Virus record (IMG/VR): IMGVR_UViG_2602041909_000007
Source: a virus
Taxonomy: Duplodnaviria > Heunggongvirae > Uroviricota > Caudoviricetes
DNA length: 36,618 bases
Direction: 5' to 3' (one strand)
Numbering within the stretch: position 1 is the first letter of the stretch; each line of letters opens with the position of its first letter. Both the position numbers and the translations under genes were made by a program. This document shows, one piece after another, positions 1,314 through 36,618 of the stretch. A model generated the notes under the pieces. That model did not search any database. It saw only the letters and a program-made list of their open reading frames with translations, and was not told where the DNA came from.

Positions 1314-1337
1314 AAAAAGCGCCTGCGGGCGCTTTAA
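1314..1337. terminator. Stem-loop terminator downstream of serS (stronger T-tract on minus strand)
   Basis: AAAGCGCC-tgcg-GGCGCTTT hairpin; plus strand followed by TTT only, minus strand followed by TTTTT. Confidence 0.5.
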
Positions 1338-1592: not shown

Positions 1593-1736
1593 TTACTGTC
1601 TACACTGTAAGAACGCCGCAAACTCCGCTCCCCAGAAGCTCATCCGTATCTCGCAGAGCGAACCCCGCAACATCCAGATGATGAGGATTGCCGTCACGCA
1701 CAGTGTGGTGATGGCGATTAGCGATTTTTGCGACAT
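1593..1736 (-). CDS. Hok/Gef-family type I toxin-like small membrane peptide (47 aa)
   Basis: Not in ORF track (<60 aa). My translation: MSQKSLIAITTLCVTAILIIWMLRGSLCEIRMSFWGAEFAAFLQCRQ. One N-terminal TM helix followed by SLCEIR and EFAAF motifs, as in Hok of R1 (…RKSLCEIR…EVAAF…). AGGAG Shine-Dalgarno 9 nt upstream of ATG. Confidence 0.6.
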   Translation of the reverse strand: MSQKSLIAITTLCVTAILIIWMLRGSLCEIRMSFWGAEFAAFLQCRQ

Positions 1737-5587: not shown

Positions 5588-6646
5588 TTACTGTCGGGAG
5601 GTTGTGGGTTGGTTATATAACTCCGTTGCAAAAATTATCTCTCCTTCAGTAAATGGGATATCTCCGTCAGGCTGTGTCGTAAAACTCTGTGAGACAGTCG
5701 TCCAGCTGTTTGTGTCAGCCTGCACGTCATTCTCTGTAACTGTTTCTCCTTCATGGCTTCCGCTTTTTACACTCCAGGCCAGGCAGTTATTGGGGGCGTC
5801 CGCACTGCGATAAGTGACAGCCGCCATAACTGCGACCAGATCGCCATTGCTGTTATCTACCGCACCAAACGTAACCTGTGCCGCCTCCGGGGACGGTGAG
5901 AGCATCAGGTATCCGGCATCACTGTCAGAGGTGTTCAGTCCCGTGACGATATCTTTATCCAGCGAGTTTTTCGCACTCCCCCCGGTAAATGCGGTTACCG
6001 GGCTGTATCTGACCTCAATAGCCCCAAGCAGGGCGGGTTCCGCGCTGTTATTTTTTCCGTATGCCACTGTTCCACAGTACATATCACCCAGCATTAACGT
6101 GCCGGATGCACCCGATGAAAAAATATTGTCACCACTACCAATACTCACCTGAATTTTGTCAGTCCGGTCATCTGATACATAAAACGATGTATTTCCAGCT
6201 AATGAGCGGTTGCAGTACAGACTGGCTGAGACATAGCCGTTTTCGTTTCGCGTTGCGAAAATTTCATAGTAATAACTGGCTGCTTCATCAGGATACGGGG
6301 TTGTAAATGAATAGCCATTAATCCTGATGTGGGATGGCGAAGATGAATATTTCTTTCCCGCACTTAATGTCAGACGAAATCCCAGCTGTACAGCTGAGGT
6401 CTTTAAGTCCGGGAGTGTGCTGTACAGTGTGACATATGAGGGTGTCGTAAAAATCAGCCCCGTTCTTTCTACAGTATTTACGGCCTGAGTGCCACGACAG
6501 ACGGATGTTACAGAACCGGACATATCATTGATAAGCGTGACACCGTTTTCGTTCAGTGCTGAAATAATATTTGTTGAATAATAGTTCTCGCACAATCCCT
6601 CATTCGCCGGAATTTGTCGGAACCCTTCCAGATTAATAATATTCAA
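5588..6646 (-). CDS. Hypothetical Ser/Thr/Gly-rich protein (352 aa), possible distal receptor-binding part of second fiber
   Basis: ORF immediately downstream of the second fiber-like gene; S/T/G/N-rich composition typical of beta-rich adhesin-like domains; lower GC than flanking tail genes by eye. Confidence 0.35.
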   Translation of the reverse strand: MNIINLEGFRQIPANEGLCENYYSTNIISALNENGVTLINDMSGSVTSVCRGTQAVNTVERTGLIFTTPSYVTLYSTLPDLKTSAVQLGFRLTLSAGKKYSSSPSHIRINGYSFTTPYPDEAASYYYEIFATRNENGYVSASLYCNRSLAGNTSFYVSDDRTDKIQVSIGSGDNIFSSGASGTLMLGDMYCGTVAYGKNNSAEPALLGAIEVRYSPVTAFTGGSAKNSLDKDIVTGLNTSDSDAGYLMLSPSPEAAQVTFGAVDNSNGDLVAVMAAVTYRSADAPNNCLAWSVKSGSHEGETVTENDVQADTNSWTTVSQSFTTQPDGDIPFTEGEIIFATELYNQPTTSRQ

Positions 6647-25453: not shown

Positions 25454-25768
25454 TCACTTCGGGAAAAACGCCTGAATATTCTTTTTCACCTGCTGCATAT
25501 GGGGGGCGCTGTCTGCTGCTGGTTGCGCCGGTTTTTCAGGCTGTACTGGTAGCGGTGGCATCCGTATTTCGTCTTCTGACCATTCTGCCAGCGAATACGC
25601 CAACGCGGGGGTGCGTTTTATAAGAGCCAGTCCAGCCAGAAAAGCCGCGCGTTGTGCGCGGCTGCGTTCGGAGGCTGGCAGGCTGTCGAGGTAACTGCAC
25701 GCCTCCCGTTCGCTCTTGACGACGGCGGGCTTCAGATAGAAACTTATCCGTCTGGTTGGTGTCGTCAT
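25454..25768 (-). CDS. parR: ParR-like centromere-binding adaptor (104 aa)
   Basis: Immediately downstream of parM homolog; LDSLPASERSRAQRAAFLAGLAL resembles R1 ParR (LDSIPQGERSRLNRAALTAGLAL); start at ATG 25768 with AGGAG SD. Confidence 0.7.
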   Translation of the reverse strand: MTTPTRRISFYLKPAVVKSEREACSYLDSLPASERSRAQRAAFLAGLALIKRTPALAYSLAEWSEDEIRMPPLPVQPEKPAQPAADSAPHMQQVKKNIQAFFPK

Positions 25769-25772
25769 TGAT

Positions 25773-26732
25773 TTACTCCTTGTCCATTGCGTACAGCCCA
25801 TTAACCAGAGCAAACTGTGGCACCCCGTCCGCGATGAAAGTCGCATTAACTCCGCAGGCTTCGCGGATAGCGGGTGCCACAATCTCCGCTCCTCCACCTA
25901 CAACCATCACCCGCCCGTAACCCGAAAAAACCGCCAGCGCGCGGATCACGCGTTGTTTCAGTGTTTCCTCCTTTTCACGAATAACTGCCATCAGGCTGGC
26001 GTAATGCGCGTCATTGTGGATGTGCTGGCGCAGCCAGGCTTCATCGTGGCGATGTTCGATAATGGTATTGGCGATGTGGTGACTGGTGCGCATACCGTTG
26101 GTGGCCATCACCGACAGCACGGCATCGGCCATCAGAGAAACGCCTACGTGTGGATCGCAAAACACCTGGCTGATACCTGCCAGTTGCCCCTGAACCTTTG
26201 CCACATCCAGCGTGGTTCCGCCCAAATCCACAATCAGCAGGGATTCAAACGGACTCATGTCAGCCAGTGCCTTAAAACCAGCCGGAATGGATTCAGGCAT
26301 AACCCGCACGTTACGGATAGTGAATGCCTCGCCGTTCTGGTACTCCACCGGGCGCATAACGTTCGCTTTTTTGCGGTTGATGTTGGCCATGTCCGGCTGT
26401 GCGTTTGTGTCGAAATACTCGCTCAGTGGCAGGGTAACAACCACATCCACTTCCTGTGGTGTGATGCCTGATTTGACCAGCGCGTGGTGAATGGCGATTA
26501 CATTCACATCGCTGTACTGGTATTGCGTGTCGGTCGTCTGGACAAAGCGATCGCTGACCGGATCAAAACCATAGCGCACGCCATCAAGCATGTAGTTCGC
26601 GGGCTGCGTGCCACCGAACGGCGCAGACCATTCCGACTTGAAGCTGTTCGGGCTGATGGCGTTGCGGCGTTCGCCGTTCTCAGTCCATGCCAGCTTGATG
26701 TTGGTGGAGCCGTCGTCGATACAAATTTTCAT
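25773..26732 (-). CDS. parM: ParM/StbA-family actin-like segregation ATPase (319 aa)
   Basis: Near-colinear similarity to plasmid R1 ParM as recalled: IDDGSTNIKL, ISPNSFK, YSDVNV.A.HHAL, VMPESIPAG, DLGGTTLD, GGGAE, LVNG.Y. Confidence 0.9.
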   Translation of the reverse strand: MKICIDDGSTNIKLAWTENGERRNAISPNSFKSEWSAPFGGTQPANYMLDGVRYGFDPVSDRFVQTTDTQYQYSDVNVIAIHHALVKSGITPQEVDVVVTLPLSEYFDTNAQPDMANINRKKANVMRPVEYQNGEAFTIRNVRVMPESIPAGFKALADMSPFESLLIVDLGGTTLDVAKVQGQLAGISQVFCDPHVGVSLMADAVLSVMATNGMRTSHHIANTIIEHRHDEAWLRQHIHNDAHYASLMAVIREKEETLKQRVIRALAVFSGYGRVMVVGGGAEIVAPAIREACGVNATFIADGVPQFALVNGLYAMDKE

Positions 26733-32865: not shown

Positions 32866-33264
32866 TTATAAATCAGCCTGTTTAATGAAATTCTGTCCGC
32901 GCAGCAGACGATCAACCGTGCGCAGAGCTTCGTACAACGTGAAATCCTGTCCAAACTGATTGTCGCCGTTGCTCAGAGCAAAAATGCGGTTTCCGGTAAA
33001 TGGGTTGCGTTGGCATCTGTGAACCACGATTCCTGCTTTCTCAATTAGCCAGGTGTGTTCACCAATTTGTTTTACGGGATGGCCATCAGGTGTGGCGTGT
33101 GTTTCGCTCAGGCTGTAGCGAGAGCTGCTGCGTGATGCGCTGGTGGCGAAACGGTTAGCGTGGCGTTCCGCCCCGTTGCGGAAGCGTTGCTGTGAAGAAT
33201 TTCGTTGTTGCTTCATACAAAAATATCCTGCTGCTGTTGCGAATTTGTGCCGGGTTTTAGCCAT
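32866..33264 (-). CDS. Hypothetical early protein (132 aa; alternative start at 33216)
   Basis: ORF in early operon; basic N-terminus; start uncertain. Confidence 0.4.
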   Translation of the reverse strand: MAKTRHKFATAAGYFCMKQQRNSSQQRFRNGAERHANRFATSASRSSSRYSLSETHATPDGHPVKQIGEHTWLIEKAGIVVHRCQRNPFTGNRIFALSNGDNQFGQDFTLYEALRTVDRLLRGQNFIKQADL

Positions 33265-33357
33265 GCCCGGCGCATGGTTTTGTGGTATTTTTCCACCGCC
33301 CGCAGTCTTGAAGGGGCTGTAAAGGGCGCGTGTTTAACCAACCACAAAGGAGTTGTT

Positions 33358-33825
33358 ATGGAATTAGATGCTTTTGTGTGTCTGCGAATTTTTGAAAAAC
33401 ACTGCGAGCGAGTTGCTGAATCCTATCGTGATGTGCTGGATAAAGAAACAGCCAACTCAGCATTTGTTGCTACTCGAGCATTAATTCTCCTTAAATTGGA
33501 TTTGCTACTTGTCGAGTATCGAAGAAATATTGATTCCAAGTGTGTAGTCCTCTTCGGAAAAAATGTGCTTTATCATTATCTTTTCACCCAAAAGGGTGTT
33601 TCATTGTCTGATGCCAAAAATATGTGTCTCCATGACATACTTATTGTTCTCTGGAATGATATTAATGCATATGTAATACCAGAGCATGTATCCGAGCGTA
33701 TCCAGATTCTTTATAAGCACGAGCTCTCATCTCCAATGCCTGATTTAAGTTATGAAGATGAAAGTCTGTTGCACTTTAAGGATTCTGCTTGGGATTTTTA
33801 TCCTGCCGATACACGACTGAATTAA
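33358..33825 (+). CDS. Hypothetical AT-rich accessory protein (155 aa), antisense-oriented relative to early operon
   Basis: Strong AAGGAG SD 7 nt upstream of ATG 33358; markedly AT-rich; convergent with and overlapping 3' end of 33776..34384. Confidence 0.55.
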   Translation: MELDAFVCLRIFEKHCERVAESYRDVLDKETANSAFVATRALILLKLDLLLVEYRRNIDSKCVVLFGKNVLYHYLFTQKGVSLSDAKNMCLHDILIVLWNDINAYVIPEHVSERIQILYKHELSSPMPDLSYEDESLLHFKDSAWDFYPADTRLN

Positions 33826-34384
33826 TAAACTCATTGTTTCTATCTATTTCAGCCTGGTAGGCCTCTAACTCATGCCGTAATTGTTGTTGTCTTAGTGGTA
33901 ACCTGTTGCGGCATTTCAATTCTGCTACAACGGTTTCCAAAAAATTTATCAGTTCTTCATCAGTGTATGAGCCAGCATAAATGTACGGTTTAGTGTTAGC
34001 GCATGTACAGTCTGCTGTTTCTTTAATGAGCATTGATTCGTCATCCATAATCTGTCGATAAAGTTCAAATGCTTCTTCGGCAGGAAACCTGAGCATGACG
34101 CCGCATACTGGTTCTAAAACCAATCCGAACGTTCCCTTTGCGTTATCCCGACAAAAATGGCCGTATTCATCGTCGGGATGCAGGGTGGCATCTTTCAAAT
34201 CTTCGCCATTCTGAAGCTTTGATTTAAATGCCATCAGGTCAGCGAACGTTCTGTGTAATTCGTGGTAGTCAATGCTGATTTCAACCTGTGGTTTGCCCGG
34301 AAAAACCAGCAAAAGCTTCTGGTGCGGCTTTTCGTTTTTCAGGGTTTCCAGTCGTTCCAGTAGCGCTTTATTTTTGTGATTCAT
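33776..34384 (-). CDS. Hypothetical accessory protein (202 aa)
   Basis: ORF downstream of cox-like gene; AT-rich (~43% GC by eye); 3' end overlaps the plus-strand 155-aa gene by ~50 bp. Confidence 0.5.
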   Translation of the reverse strand: MNHKNKALLERLETLKNEKPHQKLLLVFPGKPQVEISIDYHELHRTFADLMAFKSKLQNGEDLKDATLHPDDEYGHFCRDNAKGTFGLVLEPVCGVMLRFPAEEAFELYRQIMDDESMLIKETADCTCANTKPYIYAGSYTDEELINFLETVVAELKCRNRLPLRQQQLRHELEAYQAEIDRNNEFINSVVYRQDKNPKQNP

Positions 34385-34582
34385 TCTACTGTTACCTCTT
34401 TTAACTCATTCAGGCAGGGTGATATAACCCACTAACTGCCCGTGTTTGAAATAACGGCGACGAAAGTGATTTGTTATTTGTGTTAAAAATAATTTAGTCA
34501 TTTCAAAGTCCCAGCCACAGCAACCATGCGTCTCGCTATTCTTTCTGGCGAGCAAAGAATACTTCGACGCTCTTGATGTTGT

Positions 34583-35110
34583 TTATGATAAATCGCTCTC
34601 GTGATCTCTGCGTTTTTCCAGTTTTGAACTTCTACCCATATAAACCCGTTTTCCGTTAACGGTCTGGCAATCTTCTTTGTCGACTGGTGCGAACTTTCTT
34701 TTCTGGCGGTCATACGTCCAGTAACTTTTCCAGTTGTGCCATTCCGGGGGTTCGCACTCTGGTAGCTCATCAGCCAACTTGTCCCACTCTTTGGCGTTAA
34801 ACCACCATACGCCGTCTGAGTTTTCATCTTCCGGGTTTGTGCGCGTCTTGTGTCCCGGCATTTGACCGCGATGAATGGCTACGCGCAGTGCAGATTTTGT
34901 TAGCCCAATATATGCCGCGCCTTTTTCCAGAGAGCAAAGCCCGGCGATCGGACCATCCAGCCGCAAAGTCGCTCCTTTTTTGTAGGAACGCTTTTTCTTG
35001 TTTTCTTCGTGCTCGTCGTCGTTGGCGGCATCAATGGATCCGCTGAGTGCGTCACTTTCCTGAAGTGGTTGGTGGTCAGATAACTCTTTATCGGCAATGA
35101 AGTCCCGCAT
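34583..35110 (-). CDS. Cox/Apl-like excisionase-regulator with acidic N-terminal extension (175 aa)
   Basis: Divergent from repressor gene; HTH segment LEKGAAYIGLTKSALRVAIHRGQMP and GVWWFNAKEWDKL resemble P2 Cox (…KSTGAVRRMIDKGKLP…EYWVYLPAWNNGL); start codon uncertain. Confidence 0.45.
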   Translation of the reverse strand: MRDFIADKELSDHQPLQESDALSGSIDAANDDEHEENKKKRSYKKGATLRLDGPIAGLCSLEKGAAYIGLTKSALRVAIHRGQMPGHKTRTNPEDENSDGVWWFNAKEWDKLADELPECEPPEWHNWKSYWTYDRQKRKFAPVDKEDCQTVNGKRVYMGRSSKLEKRRDHESDLS

Positions 35111-35169
35111 TTGTTATCCTCTTGCGTTGGTGCGCTTGTCGCGCCTTGTGATGGTTTGTTTTGGCTTGT

Positions 35170-35226
35170 AAAGATAACCAAAAGGTTATCTTTGTGCGAG
35201 AGGTTAATACTCAAATGGTTATCTTG
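35170..35226. promoter_or_regulatory. Candidate repressor operator: perfect 10-bp inverted repeat plus third direct half-site at repressor start codon
   Basis: AAAGATAACC-aaaa-GGTTATCTTT at 35170-35193; GGTTATCTTG at 35217-35226 overlapping ATG of C-like gene; located in divergent cox/C intergenic region. Confidence 0.5.
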
Positions 35227-35556
35227 TCAATAGACTACGCAAAAAAGTTACGTCAGATACGTAAGGCGGAAGGGTTAACACAAAAGCAGTTTGCGGATAT
35301 TACTGGGTTGTCTTTGGCAACCATAAGGAATTACGAATCGGGGCAAAAGAACGCTAGAGCAAAAATCGTTGAGGCGGTTCTGCAAGTCGATCGCTTTGAA
35401 AAATACATGCTGTGGCTAATAAAAGATAAGACGCTACCTGTCGCCGGGCAGATTGCTCCGGCTCTCTCTCTTGATGGATCTATTCAGTCGGAGGGCGATC
35501 AGGTTTCAATCGGTATTACCCAAAAATCACCCCGATCAGGCCGCAATGTTGGCTGA
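35215..35556 (+). CDS. C: Immunity repressor, P2 C-type HTH (XRE-like) (113 aa)
   Basis: HTH LTQKQFADITGLSLATIRNYESGQ; C-terminal KYMLWLIKDKTLPVAGQIAPALS resembles P2 C (KYTLWFMTNQIAPESGQIAPALA) as recalled; start set at ATG 35215. Confidence 0.75.
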   Translation: MVILSIDYAKKLRQIRKAEGLTQKQFADITGLSLATIRNYESGQKNARAKIVEAVLQVDRFEKYMLWLIKDKTLPVAGQIAPALSLDGSIQSEGDQVSIGITQKSPRSGRNVG

Positions 35557-35625
35557 CTCTACACATTGAGCGAATTACATATCGCAAGGAGTGTTTAGTT
35601 AATTTATCCGTTGGAGGGGCTAATC

Positions 35626-36618
35626 ATGTCGATTAAGCAACTCAAAGACGGACGTTATCAGGTCGATGTCAGACCGCAGGGGGCGGAAGGAAAGCGGATT
35701 CGAAAAATCTTTGCCCTGAAATCAAAGGCTCAGGAGTTTGAGAAGTATGTGTTACAGAACTTTCATGACAAGCCATGGCAGGCTAAGCCAGCTGATCAGC
35801 GGCGATTATCAGAGCTGCTTGATGCGTGGTGGATGCTTGATGGGCGTAATCAGGCTTACGGGGATAGCTACAGGGTTAGGCTAGGGAAGGTTGTTCGTGA
35901 AATGGGAGATCCTCGCGCCAGTCAGATGACGCGAAAATTTATGCTTGAATATCGGTCAGAGAAATTACAGGCCGGATTAATGCCGTCCAGTATTAATCGT
36001 GACTTATGCGTACTGTCTACCATGTTCACGGTGCTGATTGAAGCTGAGGTCTTTCACAACGCGAACCCTGTACGCGGTATACGAAAACTGAAAGTTCAGA
36101 ACACAGAGATGGCCTTTCTTTCTGATGATGAGATTGAACGGCTTCTTGAGCGACTGGAGGGTGATGCGCGTCGTGTTGCCATTCTGTGTCTTTCTACTGG
36201 TGCCCGATGGAGTGAAGCATCGGAACTACGTGGAGAGCATATCGTTGGCAACCGGGTGACGTTCTTTAACACCAAAAACGGAAAATCCCGTTCGGTTCCT
36301 GTGGCGGATTCGGTCGTGCCTCTGATTAAAACCCGTCGAACGGGGTTATTGTATCAGGTTGATTATCTGAAGTTCCGGGAGATTCTTCAGGAGGTGAAAC
36401 CGGATTTGCCGAAGGGGCAGGCTACGCATGTCATGCGTCATACATTTGCCACACACTTTATGATGAATGGCGGAAATATTGTTACGTTGCAACGAATCCT
36501 GGGGCACGCAACGATTCAGCAAACAATGACGTACGCTCATTTTTCGCCGGACTTTTTACTGGACGCGATCAACTTTAATCCGCTGGCTGAAAGTGTCCAT
36601 AAACTGTCCATCGATTAG
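35626..36618 (+). CDS. int: Tyrosine integrase, P2 Int family (330 aa)
   Basis: MSIKQLKDGRYQVDVRP… and catalytic region ATHVMRHTFATHFMMNGGNIVTLQRILGHATIQQTMTYAHF closely resemble P2 Int (MAIKKLDDGRYEVDIRP…LRHSFATHFMINGGSIITLQRILGHTRIEQTMVYAHF); ATG 35626 preceded by GGAGGGG SD. Confidence 0.9.
   Translation: MSIKQLKDGRYQVDVRPQGAEGKRIRKIFALKSKAQEFEKYVLQNFHDKPWQAKPADQRRLSELLDAWWMLDGRNQAYGDSYRVRLGKVVREMGDPRASQMTRKFMLEYRSEKLQAGLMPSSINRDLCVLSTMFTVLIEAEVFHNANPVRGIRKLKVQNTEMAFLSDDEIERLLERLEGDARRVAILCLSTGARWSEASELRGEHIVGNRVTFFNTKNGKSRSVPVADSVVPLIKTRRTGLLYQVDYLKFREILQEVKPDLPKGQATHVMRHTFATHFMMNGGNIVTLQRILGHATIQQTMTYAHFSPDFLLDAINFNPLAESVHKLSID

Follow-up and report, generated by a model that had tools for sequence, protein, structure and literature searches.

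The 36,618-nucleotide window analyzed here, that is, the whole stretch of viral DNA under study, is a P2-like prophage (Peduoviridae) that has inserted into the serS–dmsA interval. The same DNA is present in E. coli E300010, in which the locus carries a RefSeq annotation. One gene of the prophage, which we call long cox, encodes a 175-aa protein that is identical to RefSeq WP_001204234.1, a "Cox family DNA-binding protein," and 100% identical to the protein cluster P0001. In the RefSeq annotation, long cox is placed between an HTH repressor of 113 aa, together with a phage integrase, and the genes of the early operon. [quoted passage not shown] This geometry equals that of the annotated P2 record. 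Long cox is a real and already catalogued long form of P2 Cox; its RefSeq Cox-family name is correct, and a PHROG family spans the full length of the product. Its architecture, in which an acidic N-terminal tail, a basic patch, and a C-terminal tail are added to an acidic Cox core, is a variant that has not been characterized previously. The features of the locus are collected in Table 1.

Table 1 Features of the long cox locus and of its product, with positions in the window
Feature	Position (nt)	Strand	Description
Long cox gene	34583..35110	minus	From the ORF list; 175 aa + stop, ATG start
Stretch within the long product, MRDFIADKELSDHQPLQESDALSGSIDAANDDEHEENK		minus	
Residues 1–36	35003..35110	minus	Near-invariant motif MRDFIADKELSD, then variable acidic stretch, predicted disordered
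Residues 37–50, Lys/Arg-rich patch NKKKRSYKKGATLR	34961..35002	minus	Net charge +7; directly precedes the first winged-helix strand
Residues 51–135, Cox winged-helix core and Trp-rich PPEWHNWKSYWTYDR	34706..34960	minus	Placed by Pfam, AlphaFold2, Foldseek, and P2 alignment
Residues 136–175 + stop, basic C-terminal extension	34583..34705	minus	Conserved; absent from P2 Cox
Internal AAGGAG (34977-34972), then TTG codon 49 (34966-34964)	34964..34977	minus	Spacing 5 nt
Shine-Dalgarno GAGGA	35117..35121	minus	6 nt upstream of the ATG at 35110
Four ACAAR direct repeats	35135..35169	minus	Spacing exactly 10 bp; at -59, -49, -39, and -29 from the ATG
Perfect palindrome AAAGATAACC-N4-GGTTATCTTT	35170..35193		Inverted repeat
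Third half-site of the probable C operator, AAGATAACC	35217-35225	minus	Abuts the Pe -35 hexamer
Pe -35 hexamer TTGACA	35225-35230	minus	Start 120 nt from the cox ATG and 8 nt past the C start codon
C-type immunity repressor gene	35215..35556	plus	113 aa, HTH_3; Pfam, PHROG 147, RefSeq; divergent from cox
P2-type tyrosine integrase	35626..36618	plus	330 aa; Pfam Int_N + Phage_integrase, RefSeq; partner recombinase
20-bp att core AAAGCGCCTGCGGGCGCTTT	1316-1335		Repeated beyond the window end, at 6002-6021 of locus L001

The next gene after cox, in the place taken by orf78 and B in P2, encodes a 202-aa protein (33776–34384, minus strand) that had no match in Pfam, PHROG, or NCBIfam. This gene overlaps convergently, by ~50 nt, an opposite-strand gene for an "ECs1072 family phage-associated protein" (33358–33825, plus strand), and together the two genes look like a cargo (moron) module that has been inserted into the early operon. 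Elsewhere in the prophage, the RefSeq annotation lists a ParM plasmid-segregation gene with a partitioning/stability partner (about 25454–26732, minus strand), as well as a Hok/Gef toxin gene near the serS-side end (1593–1736, minus strand). Such plasmid-style maintenance functions are unusual for an integrating phage.

P2 Cox is the regulator that switches the dormant phage to growth and aids its excision from the chromosome. The Pfam family PF10743 (Phage_Cox) matched residues 58–129 of the long protein over profile positions 11–86 of 87 with 32.1 bits, above the gathering score of 27.5 that serves as the cut-off, and all close homologues carry PF10743 as a precomputed assignment. The family PHROG 23196 ("transcriptional regulator") aligned with residues 1–170 over positions 1–170 of 174 (E 3.8e-111), a full-length match that takes in the N-terminal motif and the C-terminal extension, while PHROG 1831, a family of ~121 aa, matched residues 28–134. 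At 175 aa, the protein is larger than is typical of characterized Cox members (~80–95 aa), a size range that does not formally define the family.

In an AlphaFold2 model that drew on 47 family members, a winged helix occupies about residues 50–119 (pLDDT 73–86), with the elements E58-60, H61-68, H72-80, E86-90, E100-105, and H106-115. The predicted fold is that of a P2 Cox-like winged helix-turn-helix protein (beta1-alpha1-T-alpha2-beta2-L-beta3 with C-terminal helices). P2 Cox itself (4LHF) was the top PDB match of this model in Foldseek (probability 1.00, E 2e-3, TM 0.57 normalized to the target), and other excisionases ranked further down the list. Family residues 65–111 and P2 Cox residues 18–64 were aligned in register by hhalign, in a weak match with a probability of 9% against the single sequence. 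The identity to P2 Cox is 21%, and W109, W124, and W127 are invariant in the alignment, P2 Cox included. A phmmer search of PDB sequences returned a chance match alone (E 1.8), P2 Cox being too distant for phmmer to retrieve. In the BFVD fold search, the core matched generic excisionase and MerR-like HTH proteins, and the tails matched nothing.

These results can be set against an earlier, sequence-only reading of the same DNA, which had located a Cox-like HTH and a Trp-rich segment in the middle of the 175-aa ORF. Both are where it had put them, with the Phage_Cox match at residues 58–129 and the Trp-rich segment PPEWHNWKSYWTY at residues 121–133. The same reading had named a lack of similarity to Cox or Apl on formal alignment as the ground for giving up the Cox assignment. 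Since similarity to Cox was found by Pfam, where the score exceeds the cut-off, by fold, where 4LHF ranks first, and by alignment, where three Trp residues are shared, the assignment is retained.

The N-terminal part of the protein is divided by charge. Residues 1–36 contain 12 Asp/Glu and 2 Lys/Arg, giving a net charge of −10, and the AlphaFold2 pLDDT stays below 50 across residues 1–47, which are predicted to be disordered. In the Lys/Arg-rich patch that follows, the motif KxKR[ST]YKKG is conserved in most orthologues, and K45 is invariant. The earlier description of the first ~60 residues as acidic thus holds for residues 1–36 but has to be corrected for residues 37–50, which are basic, whereas its remark that they contain no internal Met agrees with the translation, in which the next Met after M1 is M84. 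The core (residues 51–129) is acidic, with a net charge of −4, and the core together with the Trp-rich segment (residues 51–135) shows a dN/dS of 0.08. Residues 121–135 (PPEWHNWKSYWTYDR) align with the end of P2 Cox and, on this alignment, correspond to its C-terminal oligomerization region.

The C-terminal extension (~40 aa), on which the sequence-only reading laid no stress, is conserved better than the N-terminal extension. F140, K145, and R160 are invariant in it, and K139, E146, D147, C148, G153, R155, Y157, L164, and E165 are near-invariant. Short beta strands are predicted for this extension at low confidence (pLDDT 53–70), and residues 130–175, which comprise the Trp-rich end of the core and the C-terminal extension, carry a net charge of +4. 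The pI of the whole protein is 6.1, compared with 9.3 for P2 Cox, and a pI of 6.1 is unusual for a DNA-wrapping protein. No clear pattern of charge compensation between the N-terminal tail and the basic parts was found across the orthologues, and a literature search on acidic N-terminal extensions or tails of excisionases returned nothing relevant.

The long-Cox family consists of proteins of 166–196 aa in E. coli, Shigella, Yersinia, Salmonella, and Serratia. Relatives were taken from IMG/VR and from exact-protein look-ups; the GTDB species-representative genomes yielded no confirmed relatives, and the family is apparently absent there. The long-Cox subfamily is narrow, as a profile search of 1.84 billion representatives returned only 21 proteins at E <= 1e-3. 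Rather distant Cox-like proteins of 112–180 aa have acidic then basic N-terminal leaders that are graded in length, and the extension is therefore recurrent in the non-P2 branch of the Cox family. A chance ORF is excluded by the occurrence of the 166–196-aa family across genera and by the PHROG 23196 match, and a pseudogene or gene fusion is excluded by the conservation of the family at full length. Likewise, a leader peptide followed by a separate cox gene is excluded because neither a stop nor a separate start is conserved.

Within the family, a Salmonella subgroup (L008, L012, L051, and L052) has a hydrophobic segment, MLNLLLDLL, instead of the lysine-rich patch and some of the acidic stretch, and it keeps the N-terminal motif, as MQSxIAEEVLSD, together with the Shine-Dalgarno (SD) sequence and the core. 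For one member of this subgroup (P0050, 136 aa), the NCBI annotation begins at the internal Met, probably through a miscalled start.

The nucleotide comparison covered 35 distinct orthologous sequences, taken from IMG/VR contigs and from genomes of E. coli, Shigella, Yersinia, Salmonella, and Serratia, and every one of them opens at the same ATG. Across 24 aligned distinct loci, which cover several genera and operator types, GAGGAT is invariant, whereas the flanking leader varies; the AAC that follows GAGGAT changes, to AGC, only in the L039–L041 lineage. At the N-terminus, a 12-residue motif, M-[QR]-[DE]-x-I-A-[DE]-[KE]-x-L-S-D, is near-invariant, with M1, A6, L10, and S11 invariant and I5 and D12 nearly so. 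The N-terminal region before the DGP motif is variable in sequence and in length (47–74 residues), and the extension has only in-frame indels, which range in size from 1 to 14 codons. Summed over the 35 distinct sequences, the extension contains no stop in frame 0, compared with 22 and 140 stops in the other frames. Moreover, pN/pS is 0.48 for residues 13–47 (bootstrap 95% CI 0.37–0.60), 0.17 for the core, and 0.33 for the C-terminal tail, which indicates that the acidic extension is under relaxed but real purifying selection.

The position of the promoter bears on the start of the gene as well. In P2 as annotated, the Pe −35 hexamer overlaps the beginning of gene C, and the distance from its start to the cox ATG is 121 nt. 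In our locus, Pe was placed by the perfect TTGACA hexamer and the P2 geometry, and TTGAC is conserved in most loci. A consensus promoter scan found neither a canonical sigma-70 site nor a canonical −10 element for Pe, the best −10 candidate being TATTAA with a spacer of 15 nt. Because the distance from the −35 hexamer to the ATG is 120 nt here, the ATG of the long ORF corresponds in position to the start of P2 cox, and the extension is therefore extra coding sequence past the start rather than an upstream over-extension. Translation of the N-terminal acidic extension is thus supported at the sequence level. The sequence-only reading had left a choice between an extended Cox variant and an internal non-ATG start, and the extended variant is favored by the conserved ATG and GAGGA, the near-invariant N-terminal motif, the in-frame indels, the lack of stops, and the pN/pS of 0.48. 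The gene is a useful annotation case in that the long ORF is the conserved product and not an over-extended gene call.

The 5' end of the gene also contains an inverted repeat on the minus strand, formed by GGATAAC (35113–35119, −9 to −3, over the SD spacer) and GTTATCT (35079–35085, +26 to +32, codons L10–S11). In the minimum-free-energy fold, GGAUAAC and GUUAUCU form a stem that encloses the AUG. The sole change in this stem is an A to G in L039 and L040, by which a G-U pair is retained. All 35 sequences have the same codons ATT5, TTA10, and TCT11, and pS is 0.15 in codons 1–12, against 0.63–0.69 elsewhere. Conservation of the N-terminal motif may therefore lie partly at the nucleic-acid level rather than at the protein level, and the inverted repeat may serve as a hairpin in translational control or as a DNA site. 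An Rfam search of positions 33000–36618 found nothing.

It would be a larger claim that the conserved 5' end is mainly a nucleic-acid element, either an SD-sequestering RNA hairpin or a DNA site, with coding as a secondary matter. The three invariant codons, the low pS, and the pairing that survives the A-to-G change speak for such an element. However, the local fold is not more stable than that of shuffled sequence (z −0.70), and no compensatory covariation was found in the stem. An element of this kind would moreover account for only ~12 codons and not for the acidic stretch of 35–60 codons under protein-level selection, and it is compatible with translation of the extension rather than an alternative to it. 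We consider this reading unlikely, and the extension is treated below as part of the protein.

Upstream of the gene, the four ACAAR repeats are the candidate Cox-binding boxes of the long-Cox subfamily, as judged by their pattern and recurrence. A search for the ACAAR pattern gave two overlapping three-box matches, compared with 0.05 expected in the whole window. Most loci have boxes at these positions, heteroimmune relatives with different repressor operators among them, and the distant Arsenophonus homologue has two ACAAR boxes upstream. The boxes are flanked by the repressor operators on one side and the cox ribosome site on the other, in a region where Pc should lie by analogy with P2; the consensus promoter scan gave no confident placement of Pc. 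Alternatively, the boxes could be Pc promoter elements or 5'-UTR elements. The adjoining palindrome is a probable C-repressor operator, and different palindromes occupy the equivalent position in other loci.

In this immunity type, the probable C operator half-site AAGATAACC occurs three times, and its core, GATAAC, is also found in two family-invariant copies, one at the cox SD (35113–35118) and one at codons 8–11 (35078–35084), so that five GATAAC copies fall within 150 bp. The sharing may be a coincidence, as other immunity types have unrelated operators, or the additional copies may be extra repressor sites.

[quoted passage not shown] One such pair lies inside the 3' end of int, with TGTCCAT at 36594–36600 and 36605–36611. 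In reverse complement, TGTCCAT matches the P2-type Int arm consensus tgTGGaCa (PMC3448106). Just outside the window, at L001 5921–5950, ACAAATTAAC-ACAAATTA follows the TGTCCAT pair and precedes the att core. This stretch includes two to three phased ACAAA copies that are conserved in other loci. Direct repeats spaced by one helix turn are characteristic of the sites bound by recombination directionality factors, namely Cox, Apl, and Xis (PMC7498355, PMC3936717). In their 3' half, the att-arm repeats (ACAAATTA) are unlike the Pc-side boxes (ACAAGSS), and they could bind a different protein.

Comparing long Cox with known proteins, P2 Cox (4LHF), whose length of 91 aa agrees with the ~91 aa quoted in the sequence-only reading, shares PF10743, the winged-helix core, and a Trp-containing C-terminal segment. 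It is likewise encoded by the first gene of a Pe operon that faces C and int, with a Pe −35-to-ATG distance of 121 nt versus 120 nt here. However, long Cox has a 50-residue N-terminal leader, made of the acidic tail and the basic patch, and a 40-residue basic C-terminal extension. P2 Cox oligomerizes via its C-terminal region and binds phased cox boxes of the form TTAAA(G/C)NC(A/C), whereas the candidates here are ACAAR (PMC3936717).

The Cox-like proteins of 100–129 aa from Peduoviridae and relatives are closer, with 28–35% identity; these include the 118-aa protein of NC_070906, pro147/pro483, and the Cox of Arsenophonus pArsFIN13 (PHROG 1831). They have the PPEWHxWK motif in common with long Cox, and those of 112–129 aa already carry an acidic then basic N-terminal leader of 20–40 residues. 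However, their leader is shorter, and they have neither MxxxIADKELSD nor the C-terminal KEDC...GKRVY...SKLE. In Nilsson et al. 2011 (PMC3448106), P2-type Cox proteins are split in two groups, of which "group 2" is larger than the P2/WPhi group, is predicted to have a winged HTH, and has only six conserved residues in common with the P2/WPhi group; the extra length is given no function there. Long Cox resembles "group 2," as far as this text description goes, in being P2-type, in its predicted winged HTH, and in its larger size.

Phage 186 Apl and lambda Xis are also small winged-helix or HTH proteins that use direct repeats one helix turn apart (PMC7498355, PMC3936717). While Apl acts at att and at the switch promoters, Xis makes partner contacts through an unstructured tail (PMC7498355, PMC3936717). 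They belong to families other than that of long Cox, and their tails are C-terminal rather than acidic and N-terminal. No sequence match between long Cox and either 186 Apl or lambda Xis was detectable.

Taken with its position as the first gene of the Pe operon, the product is very probably a full-length, 175-aa Cox of a long subfamily, which is translated from the ATG at 35110 and has a role like that of P2 Cox. P2-Cox-like action is most likely because of the homology and the gene position. The winged-helix core would bind phased direct repeats, for which the four ACAAR boxes are candidates, and the Trp-rich segment would drive oligomerization along the DNA. The Cox oligomer would then shut off the lysogenic promoter Pc, and, together with integrase, long Cox would act as the excision directionality factor at the int-side att arm. 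By analogy, a dual role in Pc repression and excision directionality is thus the most likely one.

The extra parts of the protein, all of which would be translated, would place the conserved N-terminal motif on a variable, disordered acidic linker, followed by the lysine-rich patch, and would add the basic C-terminal tail. The basic patch and the C-terminal tail may add contacts with the DNA backbone or with a partner to the acidic core. The acidic tail may fold back electrostatically on the basic parts and damp non-specific DNA binding or filament growth, or, alternatively, it may present the N-terminal motif to a partner. A more far-reaching and rather improbable proposal is that the acidic tail and its 12-residue tip form an electrostatic brake or partner hook that sets the threshold of the Cox filament, that the SD hairpin adds translational control, and that the switch is thereby retuned.

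It is decidedly unlikely that long Cox is only a Cro-like early repressor, one that controls Pc and Pe, has no excision role, and uses its extensions for another job such as anti-repressor or partner binding. Although its pI and extensions are unlike those of every characterized Cox, Apl, or Xis, and the att-arm repeats resemble the Pc-side boxes only in part, the annotation shows no further excisionase-like gene close to int, and the stretch from the Int arm sites to the core contains phased ACAAA copies. Moreover, P2 and WPhi Cox and 186 Apl, which are encoded in the same position, are dual-function proteins (PMC7498355, PMC3448106).

The choice of start codon enters here too, as two products could in principle divide these functions. 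Codons 44–49 of this allele read AAA AAA GGA GCG ACT TTG, and the predicted anti-SD duplex energy is −7.9 kcal/mol at the internal AAGGAG, compared with −5.8 kcal/mol at the site before ATG1. In this allele alone, the AAGGAG-TTG49 pair may act as a minor internal start. Codon 49 is TTA in many relatives, some of them near-identical (91–94% identity), and CTG, CTT, or CTA in others. As codon 49 varies and the SD-like run follows from the conserved Lys-Lys-Gly, internal initiation is not a conserved property of the gene. The internal non-ATG start of the sequence-only reading therefore has a counterpart in this allele, but not one that is conserved.

We give little credence to a long and a short isoform, from ATG1 and TTG49, between which the Cox functions would be split, for instance into regulated and constitutive DNA binding. 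Both starts look usable in this allele, and L009, L011, L047, and L049 have an ATG at codon 51, 9 nt after GGGGAG; however, no internal start codon is conserved family-wide, and L015–L028, L034, and L044 have no usable start codon near the SD-like run. Hardly credible is a short Cox of ~127 aa from TTG49 as the functional product, with the upstream 48 codons as an untranslated or incidentally translated leader, since, although it would open exactly at the start of the Cox homology behind an AAGGAG predicted to pair with the anti-SD better than the annotated start does, and although gene callers used such starts on truncated or variant copies (P0063 and P0050), codon 49 varies as described, the SD-like run is a by-product of Lys-Lys-Gly codons, the upstream ATG, SD, and N-terminal motif are conserved, and the 47–74 codon leader, with its pN/pS of 0.48, never gains a stop or frameshift.

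The full-length product from the conserved ATG is accordingly the form of long Cox to be considered in the biology of these phages. As the gene is annotated and its PHROG family covers the full length, the value of the locus as a discovery is small. The variant could nonetheless show how tails modulate filament-forming winged-helix directionality factors. If the brake or hook and the hairpin were true, this P2-like group would have a differently tuned lysis-lysogeny and excision switch.
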